IMG/VR virus record: IMGVR_UViG_2595698755_000001
Span: 96,001-160,000 of that record
Direction: 5' to 3' (one strand)
DNA length: 64,000 bases
Origin: a virus
Taxonomy: Duplodnaviria > Caudoviricetes
Below, piece by piece: positions 6,495 through 56,137 of the stretch; position 1 is the stretch's first letter, and each line of letters starts with the position of its first letter. The notes beneath the pieces were generated by a model. The model was given only the letters and a program-made list of their open reading frames with translations. It ran no database searches and was not told the DNA's origin. A program made the position numbers and the translations under genes.

Positions 6495-6536
6495 GCTATA
6501 TGTGTTTTGCTGTATAAAACTGCACTTTTATAAAGA

Positions 6537-7040
6537 TTATTTACCGTTATACTGGTAATATCCTTTAGTCTTTGTACGTTTGATTTCATTCGTCACTTTC
6601 ATTGCTCTTTGTAAATTGTTATTCTGGAAGTTCTTTAGGCTTGTGATTTGTCCACCTAAACGCTCATTTGTTTTTTTGAATAACTCATTTAAATGCATTG
6701 GTGTTTTGTTTGCTTTTAATACTTCAACAATTGCTTCTGTTACGATTGGTTGTCTAATACCCATATGATTACGAATATTTTGATTGATTGGATATTTCGT
6801 TTTTGGTTTTTCTTCTAACTTCATTTTTTGTTGCTCTACTTTTACTTCTTCATTTAGTGCTGATTTTGCGAATGCAACATATTCACTTAGAGTGACTTCT
6901 GTAATTCCACGTGATTCCATTTCTGTTAGGTTGTTCAATGACTCTCTAAGACCAGAATGTAAATCAATCAATCTAGCTTGTTCATCTAGAATGTTCTTCA
7001 TCTTATTTTGGATATACGCTTTCTCTTGACTAATGTTCAC
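6537..7040 (-). CDS. Rok-like DNA-binding protein (coiled-coil N-terminus, winged-helix C-terminus)
   Basis: C-terminal EAIVEVLKANKTPMHLNELFKKTNERLG...KRTKTKGYYQY resembles the Rok wHTH (recognised by eye). Confidence 0.55.
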   Translation of the reverse strand: MNISQEKAYIQNKMKNILDEQARLIDLHSGLRESLNNLTEMESRGITEVTLSEYVAFAKSALNEEVKVEQQKMKLEEKPKTKYPINQNIRNHMGIRQPIVTEAIVEVLKANKTPMHLNELFKKTNERLGGQITSLKNFQNNNLQRAMKVTNEIKRTKTKGYYQYNGK

Positions 7041-7105
7041 ATTAATCTCTCCTTCAATGTTTATTTATCTTGTAAAATCTCACTCTCACAAGTCTTACAA
7101 TTTTG

Positions 7106-7134
7106 ATTGTATATTAGGAGAGATAGCTTGTCAA
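7106..7134 (-). promoter_or_regulatory. sigmaA-type promoter of Rok-like gene
   Basis: TTGACA-N17-TACAAT on the - strand. Confidence 0.7.
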
Positions 7135-7142
7135 CACAAAAA

Positions 7143-8096
7143 TTAATCTTTTGTACTCCATGTTCCGTCAGAGCCTTGACCATAGATTGTTACACGATGC
7201 AATCCTTCTGTTCCTAATTCTGAATGGTCAATCTCTGCAACAATATTTGTATTTGCTGTTTTTGCACCACCAGAATCAGCTAATAATCCTGTCATATAAT
7301 CCAAACCACCAACCATAACTTTATACGCTTGAACATCTTTATCAAATTTAAATGTTACTAATGTCTTTTCTGCACCCGTCACTCTGCTGATTTTTGTTCG
7401 AGTAGATGAGACAACAGAAGCAATTGGAGCAGAACTTCCCATTCCAATATCAATTCCATTATTATAATTTTGTAATACTTCTGCATCTGACAATGCTTTA
7501 GTATATCCTCTACAAGCATATATTTTACCATTAAAAAATGTATTCTTTGCATTGTAATAATTACATCCAAGATATAAGTTGTAGTTTCTAGTGAATGGAA
7601 GTGTATTTGCATTCTGCGTTGCAACTAATTGACCATTTAAATACATTTTCTTTACTGATGATGTGAATGTAAACACTACATGAAGAATGTTTGTCCCTAA
7701 AGTTGTCTCTGGACTGCTTAATGTTCCACCACCACCACGTTCATAATACATCCCAACTGATTCTCTTCCTGCTTGGAATGCACCAGTAGTGCTCATAGTT
7801 ACCCGTTCTGTCGTTCCATACCACTTTGTAATATGTGTTAATTGGTCTGGTAACCCACCAGTTCTTTGAATCACACAATCAAGTGTAAAAGCGCTTGTAG
7901 GGCTTCCTAATGTGAATCCTGTAAAATCTATAGAACTGCTTGTACCATTGAATGTAGGAACGCTATTTGTAAAAGTGATATTGTTCATTACTCCAGTCAA
8001 TACTGCCCCAGATGGAGCAATATTTTCCCATCCACTTGCAGAACACTTACTTTGATAATTCCAATAATACTTTAATCCATCTGTTACTACTGCCAT
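7143..8096 (-). CDS. LamG/ConA-like domain protein, probably virion-associated
   Basis: HVVFTF...KMYLNGQLVA...LYLG...FFNGKIY..RGYTKALSDAEVLQNY LamG signature. Confidence 0.8.
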   Translation of the reverse strand: MAVVTDGLKYYWNYQSKCSASGWENIAPSGAVLTGVMNNITFTNSVPTFNGTSSSIDFTGFTLGSPTSAFTLDCVIQRTGGLPDQLTHITKWYGTTERVTMSTTGAFQAGRESVGMYYERGGGGTLSSPETTLGTNILHVVFTFTSSVKKMYLNGQLVATQNANTLPFTRNYNLYLGCNYYNAKNTFFNGKIYACRGYTKALSDAEVLQNYNNGIDIGMGSSAPIASVVSSTRTKISRVTGAEKTLVTFKFDKDVQAYKVMVGGLDYMTGLLADSGGAKTANTNIVAEIDHSELGTEGLHRVTIYGQGSDGTWSTKD

Positions 8097-24739: not shown

Positions 24740-27700
24740 TTATTTACCCATCTTCTTCAATCCTTTAATGATTTCACTAGTTACTGATTTAGCTTGGTCT
24801 TTAGTACCGTTCATACTTTCAATGTTGACATCTAAATAGTAATTGTTTTCTACGTTCATTCCGCTTACTCCACCTTCACCAACGAATTGACGAGCCATGT
24901 TGTTAGCTTGAATGTTTGGCAAGTAGTCTTTCACTTTATCAACAAGCTTGACAGTATCGAATAAATTCTTTGTGTCGTTTGCGTTTAATACTTGTTCTTT
25001 CTTGTGAAGCATTGCCATCTTTCCACCATTGCCACTCCAATCACCAGTATAACCGCCAGTGTCGAATGCTTTGATGTATTTCTTGTTTGCATACCCAGTG
25101 CTTGCTCCTCTATTGTTAGAGAACTTAACTTTCCACCAATCTCCTTCTTCTCCAAGGATTTGTACGTTTGCACCATTTAAGATACGTCTAATTACTCCAC
25201 CTTGCATGTTTGGTGCGTTACGAATGTTTAGATAACTATCTGATGTTACACCAGTTACGTTACCCTTCGTAGGCATTTGTTGTGGTGGGATAGGTGGCTT
25301 CTGTTGAGCAGGTGGCGTAGGTGGTGGTTCTGGAGCAGGTTTCATAGGTCTAGCAGGGTCATCTGGACGAATTACTTCGTTTTCGAATGTGTTATATCCT
25401 TTAGCCTTGATTAACTCTTCTACGTCACTCTTAGGGTCTTGTAGGTTGAAATCCATATTGTCAACAACCATGTCATTTGCATCTTGAACTTGTTTCTTAG
25501 TTTCATCTGAGAAGTCTTTGAAACTTGGTGTTAATCCATCGAATACTCCGTTGTTCATGTTGTTAATTTGCTGTTGCATTTTTTGTAATTCATCGTTTAA
25601 TGTTTGGAAGTTTCCTTTGATGAATTGGTCACGCATATCAGCCCAACGTTTTTCATTGTCGATAAGGTCATCGTATTTTGTACTTACGTTATCTTTTTCT
25701 TTGTCTAGTTCTTCAACTTTTCCGTTTAATACTTCTTCTTCTGCTTTTTTCTTATCTTCAATTTCTTTTAATTGCTGTTCTTTTTGGTCTTCTAACGCTT
25801 GTCGCATTAGTTCATCTTGACGTTCTTGTTGGAACTTAGCAATCTCTTTATCCATTTCAGCAAGTTCTTTTTTCATTTCCTCTAGTTTTTTCTTACCAGA
25901 AAGGCTAGTATCTTTGGATAAAATACTGATTTTATTCTGTAAGTCAGCACGTTCTTTGTTCTTGTTAGACAATTCTTCTTGATAGTTTGCTTCGTCTTTG
26001 TCTTTGTCCATTTGTTTTAGCTTCGCATCATATACTCCATTAATCTTTTCGATTTCTTTGTCGTATAATTTCATCTTAGCATCATGTGCTTTTTTCAAGT
26101 TCTCTTGTTCTTTATCAATAGCATCAATTGCCATATCTTTCATGTTCTTATAGTAGTTCTTTAATTGGTCAATGCCTTTGTCTGCTACATCTCCACGAGC
26201 ATCTTTAATTTCTTTTTCAGCTTGTAATACAGCTAATGCTGAATCTTCCCAAGCTTCTTTTACTTTATCAATCTCTGCTTTGATTTCTGTAGCTACTTTG
26301 CTATCCTTACCAAATTTATCTTCCGCTTCGTAAAGTTTTAGAGTTAAATCACGTTGTTGGTCTTCTAGCTTTTTCTTTTCAAGTTTTAATTGTTGTGCTT
26401 TCTCAATATAAAGATTCATCATCTTTGTCATGTTGTTAGGGTCTGTCAATTCCGCTACTGAGATATTGAAATCAATATCATCAACTTTGCCCTTGATTTC
26501 CTCTAATCCTTTTGTATAAGCTTCAACAATAGCATCTACGTGTGCTTTCAGAATGTCTGCATAACGTTGTTCCCAGTTGTCTAAGAACTCTTGCCATTCT
26601 GCTCTCATTGAAGTAATAGAACTTAAATTACTTTCGTATTCTGACCATAGTTTGTTGTATTGGTCACGTTGTTCTTTTGTATGACTATTAATGTTTTTCA
26701 GACCTTCTAGTTCACGCTTGATTTGTTCATTTCTACGTTCTTTATCCCATAGGTCATGATTTAAAAGTTCCCAACGTTTGATTTCAACTTGATACACATC
26801 ATGCATCATCTTGCGATATTCTGCTGTGCTCTTATTCATGGATTTCATCTTAGCTTCCATCCACTTTAATGTTACGTCTAATTCTTTCATGCTACGTTCA
26901 TAGCTACTCCAAACAGTAGGGTCTGCTAGTTTATCTGCTTCTGAATCTGTACTACTTGCTTTTGCAGAATAGAATGATTCTTTAACCCAACTTCCGTCTT
27001 CTGTTTGAACGTATCCTTTTTTACGTCTGTTAGGGTCATTTCTATCGTTGTCTTCAAAGCTATCACTGTATCCAGATAATGCTCCAAATAATCCATAAGA
27101 ATTATATCCTGTATAGATTGATGGTTGGATTGTACCAGAAGTACCTCCACCTCCACCGATAGAACCAGAGTCTCCACTACTTGCAGAGAATGAACCTAAA
27201 GCACTTGACATTGCTGAACCGAAGTTCGTTACTGCACTTGCTACTTCTCCGTTACCAGTATCAGCAAGAACATTTGTAATAGAACTCATTGTCCATGTTG
27301 CACCTGTTGGTAATGGTGGTAATGATGGTGCTTTAACTTGTACGTTAGAAGCTTGTTGAGCCTTTGCAATATAATTGTTTAAATTAGTCATTGCACCAGA
27401 GATTGTGCTATTTAAACCTTGTACAGCAGATTTAGCTTGGTTAGCTGAATCTCTTACTTTGTTTAATGCACTAGCTTGTGAGTTGTGAGCACTATTCATA
27501 GCACCTGTACTTCCAACAACAGTTCCTACCATTGAACTGAAAGCACCTTTGATAGCACTACTTGCTTGCATAGTTCCAGAAGCCATTGCGAATACTGCCA
27601 TCATGTAACTTGAGATTGCTCCCACGATAGATGAAATAGAACTGATTCCTGCTTGAGCCATTGCTGAATATGCTTGTGCCATATTTTGCGTTGCTGAGAT

Positions 27701-48729: not shown

Positions 48730-49971
48730 TTATTTAAAAGTTACCCAACGCACTTCAATCTCGCCATCTTCATGAATGATATGATAGCTTTGTGAAGGAG
48801 AGGACACCTTTCTTAACTTGTTTAAAACAAAATCATCTGCACCCTTTAAACTTCCACTTACTGAAATAAACTTGTTATCATGTACCTCTTTTAAATAACG
48901 TGTGTGAGTGTGTCCCATCAACACTAGGTCATAATCTATCTTGTCAATTTCAGAGTGTCGTGCTAGTAAACCTGCATCATTCTGGTTGTCTAGGTCACCA
49001 TGTAATGCCAAAATACTCTTACCATTTACAACGAATGAGTGCTTATAGTCTTCTGCTTGCTCATATGTAATTCTATCAATCTTTGCATTAGTGATAAATT
49101 GTTCAATTGCATAGTTGATAGCTTTTACTGCATGGTCACCATCAATGCCTTTGTTCTTATCTCCATCTACTCTATCGTGATTACCTGCGATACCTGCATA
49201 GGTTACCTTGACATGCTGTGATAATCCGATTAGGAATTTCTGGATTAAGTCAGATGCTCTTACAATCTGTTCTGAATATGAAAACTCTACTCCAAATCCT
49301 TGTGCAAATCGCATTGAAGAATGTTCTACAGTGTCTCCAAGGTTAATTACGTATACGTCTGTAATACCATTAGTTTTAGCTTCTGCTACGATTTTATTTA
49401 AGTATTTTTGCATTCTTTCTTGTGCGATGAAATAATTATATGTATTAACTTTGTTGTCAACGATTGCTCCAATATGTAAATCTGATAAACTAACAACCAT
49501 TTTTGAGTTACCTTCAAATTTAATATCTTCTGCTTCTAACTTAAACTCACTGAAATCATGAGCCTTAAATGCATTTCCAATTTGCTCTGCTGTCAAAGCA
49601 AAATCAATAACATCTCGTTTTACTTTATTTAGTTCTTTTAACACATGTTGATTCTCACGCTTCTCATAAGCCATCTCGCCAACGATTTCTTTAATAGACT
49701 CTAGTTTACTATCGGCTACCATATCAGCGTACTTAGGCGCTTCTGGAAGTTCTCCGATGGACTTCTGATAAGCTTTAATCATGCAACGATATGATTCATT
49801 GTTATCTGCATCAAAATAGCCTTCTCGCTCCATCATTTTAACTAACAATGACCATGAGCATTTTCTAGATGGTGAAGCTTTTTGTAATTCTTGTTTAATT
49901 CTTACAGCAGTGTTTAAGTGGCTTTCAGAAACTTTTACAAGTTCTCCACTCTTATTAGTATATGACCGCAT
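48730..49971 (-). CDS. Calcineurin-like metallophosphoesterase (SPbeta YonJ-like)
   Basis: SDLHIG, LGD, GNHDR, HGD, GHTH. Confidence 0.88.
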   Translation of the reverse strand: MRSYTNKSGELVKVSESHLNTAVRIKQELQKASPSRKCSWSLLVKMMEREGYFDADNNESYRCMIKAYQKSIGELPEAPKYADMVADSKLESIKEIVGEMAYEKRENQHVLKELNKVKRDVIDFALTAEQIGNAFKAHDFSEFKLEAEDIKFEGNSKMVVSLSDLHIGAIVDNKVNTYNYFIAQERMQKYLNKIVAEAKTNGITDVYVINLGDTVEHSSMRFAQGFGVEFSYSEQIVRASDLIQKFLIGLSQHVKVTYAGIAGNHDRVDGDKNKGIDGDHAVKAINYAIEQFITNAKIDRITYEQAEDYKHSFVVNGKSILALHGDLDNQNDAGLLARHSEIDKIDYDLVLMGHTHTRYLKEVHDNKFISVSGSLKGADDFVLNKLRKVSSPSQSYHIIHEDGEIEVRWVTFK

Positions 49972-49990
49972 TACTCAATCACTCCAGTTC

Positions 49991-50194
49991 TTATTCTTCG
50001 TCTTCTTCTTCTGCTTCTACACCCATAACTTCGATATCTTCTACAATAGAAATCTTAACTGTCTTACCATCAAACTCTTTTAAATACTCGAAAAATTCAA
50101 TTGTTTCTACTGATTCTTTCTTAACTTCGTAAACTACACCTTCTGCCATGTTTAGTTCACCTTTAACACTAAAACTATTTGTACGCTTTGCCAT
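49991..50194 (-). CDS. yonK: YonK-family protein
   Basis: SVKG.L.M...V.E.KKE......F...LKEFDGK.V.ISI.E pattern and SPbeta synteny. Confidence 0.7.
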   Translation of the reverse strand: MAKRTNSFSVKGELNMAEGVVYEVKKESVETIEFFEYLKEFDGKTVKISIVEDIEVMGVEAEEEDEE

Positions 50195-50301
50195 TTCATA
50201 TTACCCCTTTAATATTTTTGATTTATACTAGAATAAGCCAAGAACACAAGGCTCTTGACTTTATCTATTTCTCTTCCCGACCACTTGCATTATGCAAGAA
50301 A

Positions 50302-50520
50302 TTATTCAGTTGTAGTTGTTTCTGTATCAGTTCCAAACACTTCATTGTAAGGACGAGGTTCGCCACCTACGAATACTTCTTGTTCTTCTACTGTTGTATA
50401 TGTACCATCTTCGTTCTGCTTCACATGAGCAGGAATACGTCTAATTGCTGATTTGTATTGCGGTTCAAACTTTGTTTTATTCTTACGTGCTTCTTCTCTA
50501 CGCTCTCTACGATTCTTCAT
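50302..50520 (-). CDS. Hypothetical protein
   Basis: MKNRRERRE N-terminus; RBS present. Confidence 0.65.
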   Translation of the reverse strand: MKNRRERREEARKNKTKFEPQYKSAIRRIPAHVKQNEDGTYTTVEEQEVFVGGEPRPYNEVFGTDTETTTTE

Positions 50521-50561
50521 ATTATTATCCCCTTTTTCTCATAATATGGAAGATACGGTTT

Positions 50562-52004
50562 TTAAACCGTAACCTTCGCATATCTTTCAGTCTCTAAAAC
50601 ATCTAACATAAACTCGTATGGAGTCTTGCCATTGGAATCTAGTAATTGTTGTAGAATACTTGGTGAGTAACCACTTACTAGCTGTACGCCTTGTGCGTTC
50701 ATCGTCATTGGTGTATTGCCGACAGCACGTACATTCCAGAATACGATATTAGGGAAGTCATATCCTGCTTCTTCAAAACGCTCACGCATCTTGTTGAAGA
50801 TATCAACGCTATTTCCTTTGATACAGTATTCGTCAAACTGCATATCAGAGATTATGTATAACTTCTTGACTACATCATCATTTGACACGTTATTCTCAAT
50901 AGCTACATCTAACACTTTTTGCAAAGCAAGTTGGATGTTTGTGCTATAGCCTTTACGTGCATTGATGTTTCTTACCTTCTCTACGATGTCGCTACCTTTA
51001 ATCTCTACGAATGAAGGACGGTCTGTGAAAGTTAAGAAGTGGTTATGGTAAATACCTTTGTTGCGTTCTGCAATATACATTGCTAGTGCAATAGATACTT
51101 CCATTGGTGTTCCATTCATACTTTCACTCACATCAGCCATAACTAAAGCATTATCAGTTTTGTCACCGATGAAGTTTGGTAAGTTTTCCCATTGACCTTC
51201 AAACAACTTAATATCTTGTGGAGATACATAGCGATGAAGAATTTTACCTACGATGTCGTTTGGATATAATGTTTTCGCATTAACCTTCACTTCACCTTTA
51301 GATAAACTGTCAAGGAAACCTTTGTAACGTTCTTCGTCATTTCGGAAGAATGCTCCACGATAAACCATTCCTGCACGTGATGGAAGTTTGTCATACTGGA
51401 TGTCTCCATAACGCTTTTCTGAAAGCTTTGTCTCAACTAGGTTAAGCTTCGCTCTCAATTCAGATAACAGTTTACGATACTGTTTTGGTTTTACACCAAA
51501 ATGTTCTCGCATAAGTTTTGCATACTTCTTTGTAACATGACTAGAAGCATTTTCAGATGGCATCCACTTAGCTAGTAAGGATGGACGGTCTGTTTGCTTG
51601 TCTGCTACTAACTGACGTTTAACAAACGCTAAAACATCTGCTTTCAAGTCTGTTTCTAATAATACCCATAAATCATCCCAACGACCAAATGCAGGTACAA
51701 GTTCAATGTTATTACGTAAAGCTTCCTTGTGATGTAAAGCTAAGTGTTGCATAGCTAAACGGAAGAAACGTCTTTCCCCTTGTCCTTGTTCAATGTCACG
51801 TAAGTAGAAGATTGCTTTCAATGTCAACAATTGATTTTCACCAAATGCCTTAGACACGATTGCTTTAATATCAGCTTCACTACGTTGTCTCATTGCACCG
51901 CCTTGAGAGAATAAATCTAAAACATCAGATTTTGTACTCTTATAAGCGATAGCACCATTTTCAGTTGTTGTTTTATTAAATTCATTTTTTAAGTGATTCA
52001 ACAT
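50562..52004 (-). CDS. DUF2828-like protein (TROVE/Ro60-related helical domain plus vWA/MIDAS domain)
   Basis: TTENGA.AYKST...LDLF, FYLRDI..GQGERR, FGRWDDL, AKWMPSE, MADVSESM (DxSxS), IISDMQFD, IVFWN, LVSGYS. Confidence 0.85.
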   Translation of the reverse strand: MLNHLKNEFNKTTTENGAIAYKSTKSDVLDLFSQGGAMRQRSEADIKAIVSKAFGENQLLTLKAIFYLRDIEQGQGERRFFRLAMQHLALHHKEALRNNIELVPAFGRWDDLWVLLETDLKADVLAFVKRQLVADKQTDRPSLLAKWMPSENASSHVTKKYAKLMREHFGVKPKQYRKLLSELRAKLNLVETKLSEKRYGDIQYDKLPSRAGMVYRGAFFRNDEERYKGFLDSLSKGEVKVNAKTLYPNDIVGKILHRYVSPQDIKLFEGQWENLPNFIGDKTDNALVMADVSESMNGTPMEVSIALAMYIAERNKGIYHNHFLTFTDRPSFVEIKGSDIVEKVRNINARKGYSTNIQLALQKVLDVAIENNVSNDDVVKKLYIISDMQFDEYCIKGNSVDIFNKMRERFEEAGYDFPNIVFWNVRAVGNTPMTMNAQGVQLVSGYSPSILQQLLDSNGKTPYEFMLDVLETERYAKVTV

Positions 52005-52096
52005 AATATCACTACTCCTTTTTATCTTTTATTAAACACTTTCTTAAACTCTAAATCTACGTTTCTAATTTAAAATGCAAGAAACTGCTTAATAAC

Positions 52097-52157
52097 AAGA
52101 CACTCCTATTTTTCATCGCATATGATATAAAATTTAGGTATTTGCTGTATGTGTCTT
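52097..52157 (-). ncRNA. ACAGC-stem RNA element copy 1 (candidate Y-like RNA, minimal)
   Basis: AAGACAC-ATACAGCAAATA-CCTA...TAGG-A-GTGTCTT. Confidence 0.7.
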
Positions 52158-52170
52158 TAAGCAATTTTGC

Positions 52171-52299
52171 TAGGCTCTACCTCTAATCCTGCATCGGCTG
52201 TGACCCCTAATGCAAGACGACCTTTCGGAAGGGTCTTTCATCGCTTTGGATATCTTTTAATTGTTCTTATGTATTTTAAGATTCGCTGTGATGAGCCTA
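52171..52299 (-). ncRNA. ACAGC-stem RNA element copy 2 (long, internal hairpins)
   Basis: TAGGCTC-ATCACAGCGAAT...A-GAGCCTA; stem covaries with the other copies. Confidence 0.6.
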
Positions 52300-52307
52300 A
52301 TTTGGGT

Positions 52308-52475
52308 GTTCCTCCCTCGATGTGGACTCTTAGGAAGAACGGGTTGTGAGAGTAAGACATTGCGAACTCTTAGTTTTTGCCAAGAGTTATTAGGTGAGGT
52401 ATCTGGGATTACTTAACCCACTATGGGCTTCTCTGCCCTGTGAGCCTTTCATTCCTACCTCGTTCCCCTTACGGG
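52308..52475 (-). ncRNA. Unassigned GC-rich multi-hairpin RNA
   Basis: Several stems, including a GAGGTA/TACCTC-closed junction and CCC-GTAA-GGG; no credible ORF. Confidence 0.45.
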
Positions 52476-52486
52476 TTATAATTAAC

Positions 52487-52546
52487 TAGACACTATACTT
52501 TTATCACCATTGATTGTCGTAAGTATGTATTTGCTGTGTGTGTCTA
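52487..52546 (-). ncRNA. ACAGC-stem RNA element copy 3 (minimal, at transcript 5' end)
   Basis: TAGACAC-ACACAGCAAATAC-ATACTT...AAGTAT-A-GTGTCTA. Confidence 0.7.
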
Positions 52547-52554
52547 CATTTATT

Positions 52555-52583
52555 ATTATACCATTATCTTTTACTTTTGTCAA
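52555..52583 (-). promoter_or_regulatory. sigmaA promoter for the ncRNA/DUF2828 unit
   Basis: TTGACA-N17-TATAAT with extended TG; predicted TSS about 52548. Confidence 0.82.
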
Positions 52584-52616
52584 CAATTTCTGTTACATTC
52601 TATAAAAGATTTTTGA

Positions 52617-52689
52617 CACCCCAGAAAGGATTCGAACCTTCAACCTTGTGGGTAGAAACCACCTGCACATCCAATTGTGCTTCTGAGGT
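52617..52689 (-). tRNA. trnR: tRNA-Arg(TCT)
   Basis: Cloverleaf; anticodon loop TTTCTAC; GGTTCGAATCC. Confidence 0.85.
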
Positions 52690-52694
52690 ATGAA

Positions 52695-52767
52695 CATCCC
52701 TATCTGGATTCGAACCAGAATTAAAAGCTTCGTAGGCTTTCGTGTTAATCCATTACACTATAGAGAT
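52695..52767 (-). tRNA. trnR: tRNA-Arg(ACG)
   Basis: AAAGC-CTACGAA-GCTTT anticodon arm. Confidence 0.9.
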
Positions 52768-52773
52768 AAAGAG

Positions 52774-52845
52774 TGTGGTATATCGGATTCGAACCGATGT
52801 CTCATGGTTGGAAGCCACAAATCATAACCCCTAGACCAATACCAC
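52774..52845 (-). tRNA. trnG: tRNA-Gly(TCC)
   Basis: TGTGG-CTTCCAA-CCATG. Confidence 0.88.
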
Positions 52846-52853
52846 ATAATATA

Positions 52854-52938
52854 AGGAGAGTAAGGGATTCGAACCCTTGGAAGTTTTACCTCCACTTGGT
52901 TAGCAACCAAGCACAATAAGCCACTCTGACAACTCTCC
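52854..52938 (-). tRNA. trnS: tRNA-Ser(GCT)
   Basis: CTTGG-TTGCTAA-CCAAG; long variable arm. Confidence 0.9.
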
Positions 52939-52946
52939 ATAAAATA

Positions 52947-53032
52947 AGGAAGGTAGCGGACTCGAACCCCTAGACCATTGCTGACCACTAGTTTTCAAGA
53001 CTAGCTAGCACTACCGATATGCAAGACCTTCC
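52947..53032 (-). tRNA. trnS: tRNA-Ser(TGA)
   Basis: CTAGT-CTTGAAA-ACTAG; long variable arm; atypical D arm. Confidence 0.8.
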
Positions 53033-53039
53033 ATAAAAC

Positions 53040-53124
53040 TAGGCACTTTGTAGGGAATTGAACCCTTTATACATTCTTCTGAGTGATTGTATTCATACCA
53101 AAGTATATTAGCTGTGTGTGCCTA
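53040..53124 (-). ncRNA. ACAGC-stem RNA element copy 4, with T-arm
   Basis: TAGGCAC-ACACAGCTAAT...AGGG-TTCAATT-CCCT-ACAAA-GTGCCTA. Confidence 0.7.
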
Positions 53125-53127
53125 AAA

Positions 53128-53199
53128 TGCAGGTTGAGGGAATCGAACCCCCGATTATCGCTTACAAGGCGATTGTTATAGCCCCTTAACTAAACCTGC
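53128..53199 (-). tRNA. trnT: tRNA-Thr(TGT)
   Basis: ATCGC-CTTGTAA-GCGAT. Confidence 0.9.
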
Positions 53200-53200
53200 G

Positions 53201-53274
53201 TGGTGGAGGATAAGGGAGTCGAACCCTTGACTATGGCTTGCAAAGCCATTGTTTTCCCACTAAACTAATCCCCC
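53201..53274 (-). tRNA. trnA: tRNA-Ala(TGC)
   Basis: ATGGC-TTTGCAA-GCCAT; G3:U70; encoded CCA. Confidence 0.92.
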
Positions 53275-53279
53275 GAAAG

Positions 53280-53352
53280 TGCGGGTAGCAGGACTCGAAC
53301 CTGCGACATCTAGCTTCCAAAGCCAGTAGGCTACCAACTGCCCCATACCCAC
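53280..53352 (-). tRNA. trnP: tRNA-Pro(TGG)
   Basis: CTGGC-TTTGGAA-GCTAG. Confidence 0.88.
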
Positions 53353-53364
53353 ATATTAAGATGA

Positions 53365-53447
53365 TACAGAAGGAGGGACTCGAACCCTCACGCCACTAGG
53401 ACAGCAGATTCTAAATCTGCCAAGTCTACCAATTCCATCACTCCTGC
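53365..53447 (-). tRNA. trnL: tRNA-Leu(TAG)
   Basis: GCAGA-TTTAGAA-TCTGC; long variable arm. Confidence 0.9.
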
Positions 53448-53451
53448 ATAA

Positions 53452-53537
53452 TGGTGGGGCAGATAGGATTCGAACCTACTAAGCCGATGGCAGTGGATTT
53501 ACAGTCCACCGTAACTCTCCAACGTTACCGCTACCCC
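53452..53537 (-). tRNA. trnY: tRNA-Tyr(GTA)
   Basis: GTGGA-CTGTAAA-TCCAC; encoded CCA. Confidence 0.92.
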
Positions 53538-53546
53538 ATATTTAGA

Positions 53547-53617
53547 TGGTGGATGGAAGAATCGAACTTCCGTTTATCGGTTATCAGCCGATTGTATTAC
53601 CTCTATACGAATCCACC
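53547..53617 (-). tRNA. trnI: tRNA-Ile(GAT)
   Basis: ATCGG-CTGATAA-CCGAT. Confidence 0.88.
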
Positions 53618-53643
53618 AGATTGAGAGATGACCAGTCTCTCAC

Positions 53644-53766
53644 AAGACACAAACTTTTGTGCTCCCACTACACCACATCCCTTAGGTCTTAGGATGGTGA
53701 GGAATCGAACCTCACGCCACTACATTGATTGGTTAGTTAGTTGTATGTATTTGCTGTACGTGTCTT
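53644..53766 (-). ncRNA. ACAGC-stem RNA element copy 5: YrlA-like RNA with circularly permuted tRNA domain
   Basis: AAGACAC-GTACAGCAAAT...T arm GTGAGG-TTCGATT-CCTCAC, loop-closed acceptor CATCCT/GGGATG, D arm TG-GTGT-AGTGGGA-GCAC...GTGTCTT. Confidence 0.78.
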
Positions 53767-53772
53767 TATTAA

Positions 53773-53844
53773 TAGCGCATACGGGACTCGAACCCGTTAC
53801 TGTAGCGTGAAAGGCTACCGTCTTAACCCATTGACCAATGCGCC
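53773..53844 (-). tRNA. trnE: tRNA-Glu(TTC)
   Basis: GTAGC-CTTTCAC-GCTAC. Confidence 0.9.
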
Positions 53845-53853
53845 ATGATATTT

Positions 53854-53930
53854 TGGAAGGACTAACCAGATTCGAACTGGCGATTGTCTGGGTTGCAACC
53901 AGATGTGTTTGTCCACTTCACCATAGCCCT
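53854..53930 (-). tRNA. trnC: tRNA-Cys(GCA)
   Basis: TCTGG-TTGCAAC-CCAGA; U73 followed by CCA. Confidence 0.9.
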
Positions 53931-53937
53931 TATAATA

Positions 53938-54009
53938 TGGCTCCCGTTGGTATCGAACCAACCTCCAAGGATTTTCAGTCCTTTGCTAATCCATCTCAGC
54001 TAGAGAGCC
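53938..54009 (-). tRNA. trnF: tRNA-Phe(GAA)
   Basis: AAGGA-CTGAAAA-TCCTT. Confidence 0.9.
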
Positions 54010-54013
54010 ATGA

Positions 54014-54086
54014 TTACGGTGGTGGGAATCGAACCCACTATCTCTTGGTTATGAGCCAAGCAACTTAGCCGTTTGTCCTCACCGCA
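54014..54086 (-). tRNA. trnM: tRNA-Met(CAT) (initiator/elongator/Ile2 identity uncertain)
   Basis: CTTGG-CTCATAA-CCAAG. Confidence 0.8.
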
Positions 54087-54137
54087 TTAATATGAATGAA
54101 AGCTTCTTTTAGAGTTGAAACTGACCAACATTCTCTA

Positions 54138-54210
54138 TCAGCATGGAGGGAATCGAACCCTCATTCGTGGATTCACAGTCCACTGCGTTAAGCCATTACG
54201 CCACACACTG
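54138..54210 (-). tRNA. trnH: tRNA-His(GTG), atypical acceptor end
   Basis: GTGGA-CTGTGAA-TCCAC; C at -1 and A73. Confidence 0.85.
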
Positions 54211-54270
54211 GAAACTAAATACTAATATCTAAGACTAATATTTAGTTTCCAAAGAATGGAATAAAGATGA

Positions 54271-54344
54271 CTTCCGAGGAAGGCTTCGAACCTCCAAACC
54301 CTAGCTTCAAAGGCTAGTGACTTTACCAGTTTGTCTACTCGGAA
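54271..54344 (-). tRNA. trnQ: tRNA-Gln(TTG)
   Basis: CTAGC-CTTTGAA-GCTAG. Confidence 0.88.
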
Positions 54345-54355
54345 ATAATAGGATA

Positions 54356-54426
54356 TGTGGAATAAGGGAATCGAACCCTTGACCTCTGAATGGCAATCAG
54401 AAATTTTACCTCTAAACTAATTCCAC
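54356..54426 (-). tRNA. trnG: tRNA-Gly(GCC)
   Basis: TCTGA-TTGCCAT-TCAGA. Confidence 0.88.
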
Positions 54427-54427
54427 A

Positions 54428-54501
54428 TGGCATACCCTCTAGGATTTGAACCCAGACTAGAAGTTTTGGAGACTCCTGTGCTACCATTACACTAAGGGTA
54501 T
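54428..54501 (-). tRNA. trnW: tRNA-Trp(CCA)
   Basis: GGAGT-CTCCAAA-ACTTC; encoded CCA. Confidence 0.9.
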
Positions 54502-54502
54502 A

Positions 54503-54576
54503 TGGCGACCCGTAGGGGAATCGAACCCCTAACTCTGCATAGACAGTGCAGTATTTTTCCTTTAAACTAACGAGCC
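54503..54576 (-). tRNA. trnD: tRNA-Asp(GTC)
   Basis: CTGCA-CTGTCTA-TGCAG; G73 followed by CCA. Confidence 0.9.
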
Positions 54577-54578
54577 AT

Positions 54579-54653
54579 TGGCTGGGGTGATAGGAATTGA
54601 ACCTACACTCTTTCGGTTAACAGCCGACTGCTTTACCTTTAAGCTACACCCCA
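54579..54653 (-). tRNA. trnN: tRNA-Asn(GTT)
   Basis: GTCGG-CTGTTAA-CCGAA; encoded CCA. Confidence 0.9.
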
Positions 54654-54659
54654 ATATTC

Positions 54660-54708
54660 TAGACACTCAACTTTATTATCCAAAAGTTGTAATCGCTGTA
54701 TGTGTCTA
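54660..54708 (-). ncRNA. ACAGC-stem RNA element copy 6 (minimal, first unit of the tRNA operon)
   Basis: TAGACAC-ATACAGCGATTA-CAACTTT-loop-AAAGTTG-A-GTGTCTA. Confidence 0.7.
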
Positions 54709-54734
54709 AGTAGGTTTCTCAACCTTATAATACT

Positions 54735-54763
54735 ATTATATCATAATCTTTTGTGTTTGTCAA
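54735..54763 (-). promoter_or_regulatory. sigmaA promoter of tRNA operon (P2)
   Basis: TTGACA-N17-TATAAT with extended TG. Confidence 0.82.
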
Positions 54764-54844
54764 GTAAATATGTTACATACTTGAAAACTTTTTTTTGAAG
54801 TTAAGTGGCGGTTTGATTACAACGTCACCACTTAACTTATACTA

Positions 54845-54873
54845 AGTATACCATTATCTCTGATGTTTGTCAA
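54845..54873 (-). promoter_or_regulatory. sigmaA promoter upstream of tRNA operon (P1)
   Basis: TTGACA-N17-TATACT with extended TG. Confidence 0.75.
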
Positions 54874-54901
54874 CAATATATCTTAGATTATTTAAAACTT
54901 T

Positions 54902-56137
54902 TTACATTAGGTCAGCAATGTCTGCTACACGACTTCTATGTACTCGTTGAAGTTCAACTTCTCCGAATAGGTCTAGACCTCGGAATACCTCTGACATACG
55001 CTTCATACCATTGTTAGAAGAATATGCATCTCGGTCAACCTGTGCGAAGTAATCACCGTCTACAACAACCTTAGTATTCTCTGAGATACGTTGTAGTCCC
55101 AGTTTCATTAGGTCTGCTGTTAAGTTCTGTGCTTCTAGAATCCATACGATTGTTTTGTTATCGCCTGTGTCGAAACCACGTAGGTCTACGAATGGAAGGA
55201 TGTCTAGTTTTTGGTCAAAGATTTGCGCTAAGATTTCTTCCTCGCCACCAAACTTAGATTTAAGCATTGTACCAACTGCTGACTGCATTAACTTCTCCAT
55301 ACGGTCACCTTTGTAGAATCCAAGTTCTTGTGCTTCACGTAGAGGTGTTGGGTTAACAAACATTACTAGTTTGTATCCTTCTTCTTCAACCATTCTCCAA
55401 GCAGTGTTCAGAGTGATTAATGATTTACCACTACCTGCACGACCACGAAGGATTGTTAACTGGTTACTTCTGATTGAATCAATTGCCATGATTTGATGCT
55501 CATCGAATGGCTTGAATTTACCGAATTGATTTGTTCTAAATTCAGCACCTAGTTTGCCTTGTACATCACGTAATGATTTTGTAGTTGTCCCAGTCCATTT
55601 TACGATGTCAAGTAACTCATCATCCACACGATTATTTACGATAGCGTATTCATTAATCATTAAACCAAAATGGTTGTGCTCTGGAGTTTCCATCATTCTA
55701 TTATATCCTGTCTCTGACATTGCAAATTCTTGGAATCCCTTATTGTCAACGAAATTACTGTCATCCATTTTCTGGATAGTGATATTGTATAACTTACATT
55801 TCTCTTTTAGTAAACGGTCATTAGTAATCATTCCATAACCATTATCTACAGCTACTTGAAGCAGGATGTTGTCTACATATTGTGAGTCAAATCCATCTTC
55901 TTCTTTTTCTAAAGAAAACTTGTAATCTTTAATGTCAATGTATACATGAGGGTTGTCTTCATTTTCATCAAGGAATTTTTTAAGTCTACGAATCTCAAAT
56001 TGTAAAGTTCTGTCACTCTTACGTTTAAGTTCAAGTTGTTCAATCTCTCTTAACACATGTGAAGGAATCACACAATCAAAATCGAAAACAACTTCTGGTT
56101 TTCTTAGTAATGCATTTGTATCTACAACAAATTTCAT
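54902..56137 (-). CDS. phoH: PIN-PhoH protein (YlaK/PhoH2-like)
   Basis: N-terminal PIN (VVDTN, VLREIE, DN.LL, ITNDR) plus GRAGSGKS, LGFYKG, LRG, EAQN, DGD..QVD, HRSRVA. Confidence 0.9.
   Translation of the reverse strand: MKFVVDTNALLRKPEVVFDFDCVIPSHVLREIEQLELKRKSDRTLQFEIRRLKKFLDENEDNPHVYIDIKDYKFSLEKEEDGFDSQYVDNILLQVAVDNGYGMITNDRLLKEKCKLYNITIQKMDDSNFVDNKGFQEFAMSETGYNRMMETPEHNHFGLMINEYAIVNNRVDDELLDIVKWTGTTTKSLRDVQGKLGAEFRTNQFGKFKPFDEHQIMAIDSIRSNQLTILRGRAGSGKSLITLNTAWRMVEEEGYKLVMFVNPTPLREAQELGFYKGDRMEKLMQSAVGTMLKSKFGGEEEILAQIFDQKLDILPFVDLRGFDTGDNKTIVWILEAQNLTADLMKLGLQRISENTKVVVDGDYFAQVDRDAYSSNNGMKRMSEVFRGLDLFGEVELQRVHRSRVADIADLM

Follow-up and report, generated by a model that had tools for sequence, protein, structure and literature searches.

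Candidate Ro60/Y-RNA-type system in a phage tRNA array: a DUF2828 protein and a family of ACAGC-stem RNAs

The locus and its RNA elements

Here we describe a locus in a stretch of 64,000 nucleotides of phage DNA (the window; positions 96,001 to 160,000 of IMG/VR virus record IMGVR_UViG_2595698755_000001), in which a gene of the DUF2828 family is accompanied by a tRNA array and by six small RNA elements, named A to F. Each element is closed by a short stem whose 5' strand is followed by the word ACAGC. We are highly confident that these RNAs are real, conserved and structured elements tied to DUF2828 genes. The best explanation of the locus is a phage Ro60/Y-RNA-type system that pairs a divergent clade of proteins with an RNA family not defined before.

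The window belongs to a 168,876-bp virus record with terminal repeats. The region resembles the large Bacillus siphophages of the Tsamsavirus group, with 92% DNA identity to vB_BanS-Thrax4 across 2.8 kb. The order on the minus strand is a PIN-PhoH gene, a promoter, element A, the tRNA genes with B and C among them, a second promoter, elements D, E and F, and finally the gene for a protein of 480 amino acids (Table 1). The promoter ahead of element A appears to head a unit that starts with this element and continues into the tRNA array. The -10 box of the second promoter ends 8 nt before element D, so that a primary transcript may have D as its 5' end and may run on through E and F into the DUF2828 gene, whose start codon follows the end of F after 93 nt. 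Element A precedes tRNA-Asn, B is sited between tRNA-Glu and tRNA-Ile, and C between tRNA-Thr and tRNA-Ser. The gap from the preceding tRNA 3' end is 4-6 nt for B and C, and the next tRNA gene follows after 7 nt (A), 8 nt (C) or 26 nt (B); the elements are thus packed like tRNA genes.

All six elements were located on the minus strand where the initial annotation had placed them and with the anatomy it had described, namely a perfectly complementary 7-bp closing stem, two nucleotides (three in one copy), ACAGC, and a G directly after the stem. The surroundings it had given, a tRNA array, a sigmaA promoter and a DUF2828 gene, are borne out by 21 tRNA genes, two perfect promoters and a Pfam match. 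Its consensus RYACAGCRA holds only approximately: ACAGC follows the 5' strand in every copy, but the longer consensus is exact in four of the six, the remaining two reading ACACAGCTA and TCACAGCGA. It had also seen no canonical Ro-binding helix here, and rightly so. On the minus strand between 50000 and 55200, GGTCCGA has 0 occurrences, and the one site for GNCGAAN0-1G lies inside a coding sequence and in none of the six RNAs.

The minimum-free-energy folds form the closing stem in 6/6 elements. The folding z-scores of A to F are -2.3, -1.3, -3.3, +0.3, -2.4 and -2.3; folding energy alone is therefore weak evidence, and the case rests on sequence comparison. When both strands of the whole genome were searched for the strict motif with its partner, 6 occurrences were found, all in this 2.6-kb stretch and all on one strand. 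A chance origin of the six-copy motif is excluded. No Rfam family covers the elements: positions 49500-56000, scanned by E-value, and four other loci, scanned at the gathering threshold, returned tRNAs and weak noise only.

The interiors of the elements are of different kinds. Element B encloses a variable region, a T arm, a closed acceptor-like stem, a 2-nt spacer and a D arm, in this order, and is the only one of the six with a tRNA-like domain. Element C has two hairpins, one of them T-arm-like, and the large interior of element E includes two conserved hairpins. A pseudoknot partner for ACAGC was looked for by eye within element A only, and none was seen there.

Table 1. Features of the DUF2828 locus in the window (R1, covariance model described in the text)
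Feature	Position	Strand	Details
Element A	54660-54708	-	49 nt; TAGACAC/GTGTCTA, AT, ACAGC, inner hairpin; R1 50.2 bits, E 1.4e-8
Element B	53644-53766	-	123 nt; AAGACAC/GTGTCTT, GT, ACAGC; R1 36.9 bits
Element C	53040-53124	-	85 nt; TAGGCAC/GTGCCTA, AC, ACAGC; R1 40 bits
Element D	52487-52546	-	60 nt; TAGACAC/GTGTCTA, AC, ACAGC; R1 69.9 bits
Element E	52171-52299	-	129 nt; TAGGCTC/GAGCCTA, 3-nt spacer ATC, ACAGC; missed by R1, found by patterns
Element F	52097-52157	-	61 nt; AAGACAC/GTGTCTT, AT, ACAGC; R1 66.1 bits
DUF2828 gene	50562-52004	-	480 amino acids; Pfam DUF2828 1.5e-37, DUF7788 1.5e-42
Putative sigmaA-type promoter	54735-54763	-	TTGACA, 17 nt, TATAAT, with TG; called from 12/12 consensus matches only
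Second putative sigmaA-type promoter	52555-52583	-	perfect; 12/12 consensus matches
tRNA array	52615-54653	-	21 tRNA genes, elements B and C embedded; ARAGORN, Rfam tRNA matches
PIN-PhoH (PhoH2/YlaK-type) nuclease-helicase gene	54902-56137	-	Pfam; flanks the locus
Metallophosphatase gene	48730-49971	-	flanks the locus

Conservation and covariation of the closing stem

In the window and 11 related Bacillus phage loci, every occurrence of the 5' pattern (73/73) has a perfect partner within 260 nt, and seven different stem sequences are used. These 11 loci carry 5-8 copies each, at matching positions. An alignment of 60 non-redundant copies with MAFFT split the 3' ends into two blocks and was useless for counting pairs. 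A covariance model, R1, was therefore made from the 27 shorter copies, with the closing stem as its only structure. In these 27 copies all 189 stem cells pair, and double changes are found at 3 of the 7 pairs. R1 carries a Bacillus-type stem and misses element E as well as all Listeria copies, which are recovered by a second model, R2, and by patterns that leave the stem sequence free.

A wider view is given by 90 hits from 39 diverse viral loci. Standard pairs fill 630/630 stem cells, a figure that is not independent, as the hits were picked by a model that rewards pairing. Double changes occur at all seven pairs (122 cells), which agrees with the covariation proposed initially, again for hits selected by the model. 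None of 500 shuffles reaches the observed values, and registers slid along the hits pair in 26-51% of cells. G-U pairs are tolerated. The variety of compensated stems is real, and stem sequences vary between lineages and even inside one locus. CAGC is invariant in the 90 hits; the A before it is kept in 80, the two A's after it in 82 and 89, and the G at the 3' side in 90. Given the varying stems, any base-specific reading is probably focused on the 3' G and the single-stranded word. Below we call the constant part of the elements the handle and their interior the cargo.

Cargo and tRNA-like modules

Short copies contain one hairpin, which starts one base ahead of the closing stem's 3' strand and leaves about 12-13 free bases on the 5' side. 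Among the long copies, 3 of 24 had another layout and were set aside (locus L055 twice, L023 once). An alignment of the tRNA-like arms with MAFFT shifted the registers between subgroups, and the arms were searched in each sequence separately instead. In 18 of the 21 long copies this search found a 5-bp T stem with a TTCRANY loop, a loop-closed acceptor-like stem of 5-7 bp, 2 nt and a D arm; the other three failed. The 18 copies use ten distinct T stems and ten distinct acceptor-like stems. Their order of T, acceptor-like stem and D is that of the bacterial Y RNA YrlA, which is built in the order V, T, AS, D and has the conserved word GNCGAAN0-1G near its 5' end (PMC4201824).

A few copies enclose an unpermuted D-anticodon-T body that has no acceptor stem. 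Some of these have been called tRNAs, both by ARAGORN and by the depositors of the records, so the motif can be used to flag mis-called 'tRNA' genes in phage annotations.

Association with DUF2828 genes

We sampled 160 DUF2828 loci with homologues of about 37-91% identity. One half comes from IMG/VR (40-91% identity, gene oriented plus) and the other from bacterial or archaeal genomes or metagenome-assembled genomes. With R1 at E<=1, all 168 matches in the viral set are on the gene strand. By our count from the result table, 45/80 viral loci have a match at E<=0.01 and 55/80 at E<=1. All 124 R1 matches of the genome set are on that strand too, at 200-500 nt upstream of the gene for the most part, which brings the total for both sets to 292. 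In 32 further or previously blank loci R2 gave 29 matches, again all on the gene strand. The initial proposal that the motif accompanies DUF2828 genes is thus upheld for distant members of the family.

As R1 carries a Bacillus stem, we also used a stem-agnostic pattern (any 7-bp stem, 2-3 nt, ACAGCNA, then the partner and a G). It occurs 158 times in sense and 2 times in antisense in the viral set, and 116 versus 4 times in the genome set, which makes 274 versus 6 in total. The pattern is positive in 57/80 loci of each set and in 114/160 overall. The distance of the six copies in the window, all upstream of the gene on the same strand, ranges from 93 nt to 2.7 kb and is within the approximately 4 kb of the Ro gene that PMC4201824 allows for a Y RNA.

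Copies beside the gene are found in phages of Listeria, Enterococcus, Staphylococcus and Mycobacterium, as well as of Campylobacter and in Felix-O1-like phages. Listeria phage 20422-1 (locus L092) has 3 tandem copies after a promoter, Campylobacter phage CP81 has 2 upstream copies, and Enterococcus phage 113 is also positive. Staphylococcus phage SEP9 and mycobacteriophage Faith1 each have 3 copies downstream of the gene, one of those in Faith1 with a T arm. Citrobacter phage Michonne (Felix-O1-like, Mooglevirus) has 4 copies in a tRNA array after the gene, and Bacillus phage FADO has six at E<=0.1. The whole record of Thrax4, where the gene is present, gives 5 R1 matches, all of them beside the gene. 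As a control, we searched the whole records of BCP78, BCP8-2 and Thrax5, which have tRNA arrays and no PF11443 gene; no R1 match was found in these three genomes.

In 48/60 viral loci, tRNA genes are found no more than 6 kb from the gene, nearly always on its strand, and in Listeria phage 20422-1 an RNA ligase is annotated 1.3 kb downstream of the gene. An RtcB gene is found within 5 kb in 28/80 bacterial loci, and in 27 of these it is directly upstream on the same strand. The gap of about 500 bp between rtcB and the DUF2828 gene holds one to six elements in these 27 loci. In Ruminococcus flavefaciens YL228 (L137), for example, the upstream open reading frame matches RtcB (PF01139) with 369 bits, and the sequence shows the elements plainly. 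This rtcB-RNA-DUF2828 arrangement mirrors the known arrangement of rsr, Y RNA and rtcB genes and points to RNA repair. The fetched flanks of the 80 viral loci hold no RtcB gene. As a side observation, the unit of L137 has flanking genes (L137:846-3084 and 6525-7724) for divergently oriented WYL- and WCX-domain proteins, which are likely regulators, and for a second RtcB paralogue, encoded on the other strand.

The DUF2828 protein

Pfam assigns the helical part of the 480-aa protein to DUF2828 and its vWA part to DUF7788, while the vWA family itself matches below threshold. [quoted passage not shown] An AlphaFold2 model built on the 29 homologues reached a predicted local distance difference test score (pLDDT) of 80.8 and a predicted template modelling score (pTM) of 0.75. 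When this model was compared with the PDB by Foldseek, the eight top matches were all Ro60, Rsr or TROVE structures (9kop, 1yvr, 9nep, 1yvp, two chains of 2i91, 9nfa and 2nvo), with E-values of 2e-8 to 1.9e-5 over 509-569 alignment columns, which cover the whole length of the protein. The best is the Thermus phage protein phiRo60 (9kop, E 2e-8, TM 0.56). Xenopus and other Ro60 entries as well as Deinococcus Rsr (2nvo, E 1.9e-5) are also among the eight, and isolated vWA domains rank next. Among predicted viral structures the best matches are DUF2828 proteins of phages and giant viruses, and further matches are a crAss-like phage's TROVE protein and, from a Gordonia phage, a 'Ro-like RNA binding protein'. 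The model thus supports a predicted fold of a helical-repeat ring plus a vWA domain, like that of Ro60/Rsr.

Of the initial suggestion that the protein is a divergent Ro, the structural part stands at the level of the predicted fold. The idea is less new than had been assumed: the records of Faith1-type mycobacteriophages, whose homologue shares 37% identity over the full length, already carry the annotation 'Ro-like RNA binding protein'.

The protein shares 98% identity with its counterparts in Izhevsk and Thrax4, and 98.8% with the KoopaTroopa protein. Homologues were found by tblastn in 709 of 50,697 phage records, and a full-database search gave 6,912 DUF2828 cluster representatives at E<=0.001. 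Hosts of the homologues include Listeria, Staphylococcus, Enterococcus, Mycobacterium, Campylobacter, Vibrio and enterobacteria, all represented by their phages.

Relation to known systems

The closest bacterial parallel is the Salmonella rsr-yrlBA-rtcBA operon, in which the bacterial Ro60 (Rsr) is encoded with the Y RNAs YrlA and YrlB (PMC4201824). The two systems share a ring-plus-vWA protein (predicted in our case) and several same-strand RNAs within a few kb. They are also alike in the paired ends of the RNAs, in a short conserved single-stranded word after the 5' strand, in a tRNA-like domain of the order V, T, AS, D and in a linkage to bacterial rtcB. The present system differs in that the protein has no TROVE match, the word is ACAGCAA rather than GNCGAAN0-1G, the Rfam YrlA family is unmatched and a tRNA-like domain is absent from most copies. 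A locus can hold as many as eight copies (11 Bacillus phage loci), often in phage tRNA arrays. The published survey covered TROVE-annotated genomes only (PMC4201824).

A canonical phage Ro60 is known from Thermus phage phiLo, where phiRo60 (PDB 9KOP) binds the RNAs Yrl1 and Yrl2 and the host PNPase (PMC12135203). Here too a phage Ro60-type protein has candidate Y-like RNAs just upstream of its gene. The proteins are 16% identical, and the RNAs of phiRo60 were picked by a CGAA motif. Binding of RNA and PNPase has been shown for phiRo60, whereas the system in the window is known from sequence and a model.

Two further phage proteins have come close to the system. Bas63 gp130, a Ro60-like protein of a Felixounavirus encoded directly upstream of tRNA genes, is reported in bioRxiv 10.1101/2024.10.10.617714 to counter the Ppl defence. 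Its authors guess at Y RNAs among the annotated tRNAs, and the main text of this preprint defines no motif. Felix-O1-like phages have DUF2828 homologues of about 32% identity, Michonne with its four ACAGC elements after the gene among them, and we infer that gp130 is a DUF2828 protein. In Listeria phage CKA15, the product of CKA15_055 is Rsr-like by HHpred, and 20 of its peptides were found in purified virions (PMC12282133). Upstream of its gene, at a distance of up to 2 kb, are three non-coding regions with very high transcription, driven by strong sigmaA-like promoters, for which Y RNAs are one of several guesses (PMC12282133). By its likeness to L092, a 98.6% identical relative, CKA15_055 is a DUF2828-type gene downstream of a tRNA region. 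The three tandem ACAGC elements of L092 sit in a promoter-headed segment inside those 2 kb (L092:6594-6988), which may be one of the three regions. We also note a promoter-headed non-coding stretch of about 650 nt in L092 (L092:5404-6061), in which neither an ACAGC element nor, at gathering score, an Rfam family was found.

The idea is partly anticipated, as these two papers (PMC12282133, bioRxiv 10.1101/2024.10.10.617714) proposed unnamed Y RNAs near such genes. The ACAGC family itself is absent from Rfam 15 and is not defined in PMC4201824, PMC12135203, PMC12282133 or the Bas63 preprint, their supplements excluded. A search of a limited collection of literature on Ro60-like proteins, Y RNA-like RNAs and Rsr gave no description of an ACAGC motif, likewise excluding supplements, which could bear on priority.

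Further features of the locus and its relatives

The stretch 54780-54873 (minus strand), just upstream of the promoter ahead of element A, has a third near-perfect sigmaA-type promoter (54873-54845, 11/12 consensus matches) with a long hairpin and an A-run behind it. This promoter may give rise to a short transcript, or else the hairpin may be a terminator for the opposite strand. Between D and E, a stretch of 187 nt (52300-52486, minus strand) is richer in G+C and folds well (z -3.1). It is near-invariant in six Tsamsa-like phages, with compensated changes in just 3 of 49 predicted pairs. It lacks both an ACAGC handle and a match in Rfam, and may be a further co-transcribed RNA.

In seven of the related Bacillus phages (L002, L005, L006, L007, L009, L010 and L011), genes for HNH and GIY-YIG homing endonucleases are inserted at varying points of the tRNA array, and single tRNA genes have been lost or gained between these phages. 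Other tRNA clusters near DUF2828 genes show peculiarities of their own. Seven viral contigs (L024, L027, L031, L036, L037, L053 and L066) have ARAGORN tRNAs with the anticodon CTA, labelled Pyl, which are maybe amber suppressors of TAG-recoding phages. Phage transfer-messenger RNA genes are found in the clusters of Enterococcus phage 113 (L097:1525-1872) and of a viral contig (L068:1457-1741).

Alternative explanations

We consider it fairly probable that the RNAs are ligands of the Ro-like ring and are bound through the handle, a reading that we infer from their co-occurrence with the gene. Several observations weigh against it. The kinship of the protein to Ro60 depends on the predicted fold, as no match was found at the sequence level: Pfam TROVE (PF05731) does not match the 480-aa protein even at E<=10 and was not found anywhere in the phage genome, while control genomes gave matches, and sequence searches of the PDB with the single protein or a profile of 29 homologues (E<=10) found no Ro60. 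The agreement in fold is itself modest, with TM scores of 0.35-0.58 and root-mean-square deviations of 7.5-13.4 A across the Ro60-type matches. On the RNA side, the canonical Ro-binding words are not in the six RNAs, where ACAGCAA holds the same relative position, and the YrlA model RF02553 does not match element B; its sole matches (E 0.54 and 0.86) overlap true tRNA genes. The lack of independence in the 100% pairing figure belongs here as well. About 23/80 loci of each set have no element by the patterns used, and neither R2 nor the patterns found one in KVP40. The top transcribed region of CKA15 (26,236-26,727) corresponds to L092:5475-5966, within the 650-nt stretch mentioned above, and holds no ACAGC element. 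Finally, gp130 alone, from a plasmid or in the T7 genome, rescued T7 on a Ppl host (bioRxiv 10.1101/2024.10.10.617714), which means that the protein can act without RNAs of its own.

The last point also bears on the question whether another molecule reads the handle. RtcB, RNase P or Z, PNPase, the neighbouring PIN-PhoH protein or a host protein could be this reader, and DUF2828 would then merely share the operon, a reading to which the activity of gp130 without its own RNAs lends some weight. RtcB is encoded beside the RNAs in 28/80 bacterial loci, and a PIN-PhoH gene flanks the array in the window. This gene and the metallophosphatase gene are kept in Tsamsa-like relatives but are rare beside DUF2828 elsewhere (6/160 and 10/160 loci), and owing to this rarity the PIN-PhoH nuclease was rejected as the partner. 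The same counts speak against any of the neighbouring enzymes: PhoH2 is found in 6/160 fetched flanks and RtcB in none of the 80 viral ones, but the motif in 114/160. In Thrax5 a YlaK-type nuclease and tRNAs are present, and the DUF2828 gene and the motif are both absent. The sole constant neighbour is DUF2828, by the design of our sampling; this speaks for linkage, but a distant partner or one from the host would be compatible with our data. On balance we regard another reader as improbable.

Just as improbable, in our view, is a role in cis, in which the elements would be leader or operator hairpins that tune how the DUF2828 mRNA and the tRNA transcript are translated, stabilised or processed, perhaps with the protein binding in feedback, and not free-standing RNAs. 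Most copies are indeed directly upstream of the gene and on its strand, and the stretch from a promoter to the gene holds D, E and F. But copies are also found up to 2.7 kb upstream among tRNA genes, and downstream of the gene in SEP9, Faith1 and Michonne, and the covarying tRNA-like arms of the cargo have no obvious use in a leader. We give very little credence to the possibility that the elements are repeats acting at the level of DNA, such as ends of small mobile elements or recombination sites that shuffle the cassettes of tRNA arrays. Short inverted repeats around variable inserts would fit this picture, as would the homing endonuclease genes in the arrays of relatives. It is difficult to reconcile with the one-stranded orientation relative to the gene (274 versus 6), the tolerance of G-U pairs in the stem and the conservation of ACAGCAA on one arm only. 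Orthologous copies moreover hold their position across phages and show compensatory changes within the cargo.

Proposed mechanism and implications

For a Ro60/Y-RNA-type system we envisage the following course of events. The six RNAs would be transcribed together with the tRNA array and the gene from the two strong sigmaA-type promoters, and would probably be freed through trimming and through the cuts that process the neighbouring tRNAs. In each RNA a constant handle (the closing stem of 7 bp with the G that follows it and, on the 5' side, two unpaired bases and then single-stranded ACAGCAA) would be combined with a variable cargo, which may be a plain hairpin, a T-arm hairpin or a YrlA-like permuted tRNA-like domain. 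By analogy with Ro60, which binds a motif in the 5' strand of Y RNAs, the protein may bind the handle, and the cargo may tether the ring to other RNA enzymes or RNA substrates or gate its access to them. The most likely function would be RNA repair or quality control during infection in the service of counter-defence; a role in RNA repair or counter-defence is plausible.

This leads to a bolder hypothesis, which taken as a whole we think rather unlikely. The ACAGC handle might be a universal loading tag, by which one Ro-like ring displays cargos chosen by the phage, including permuted or acceptor-less tRNA bodies. Once loaded, the particles would be decoys for tRNA-cutting nucleases of the host, or sensors of them, and would pass damaged RNAs on to RtcB-type ligases. 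They might even be pre-assembled in the virion and act from the first minute of infection. If this were true, a programmable RNA-guided counter-defence platform would be common to bacterial rtcB operons and to phages of at least four phyla of hosts (Bacillota, Actinomycetota, Pseudomonadota and Campylobacterota).

DUF2828 is a very large family. One probable member, Bas63 gp130, has a published counter-defence phenotype, and the gene of another, CKA15_055, is reported downstream of the transcripts that are most abundant in its phage. The RNA partners of both were previously undefined, and the motif turns a vague guess about Y RNAs near tRNA genes into concrete molecules. With these RNAs, the theme of Ro, Y RNA and RtcB in RNA repair would be extended to a second protein clade.

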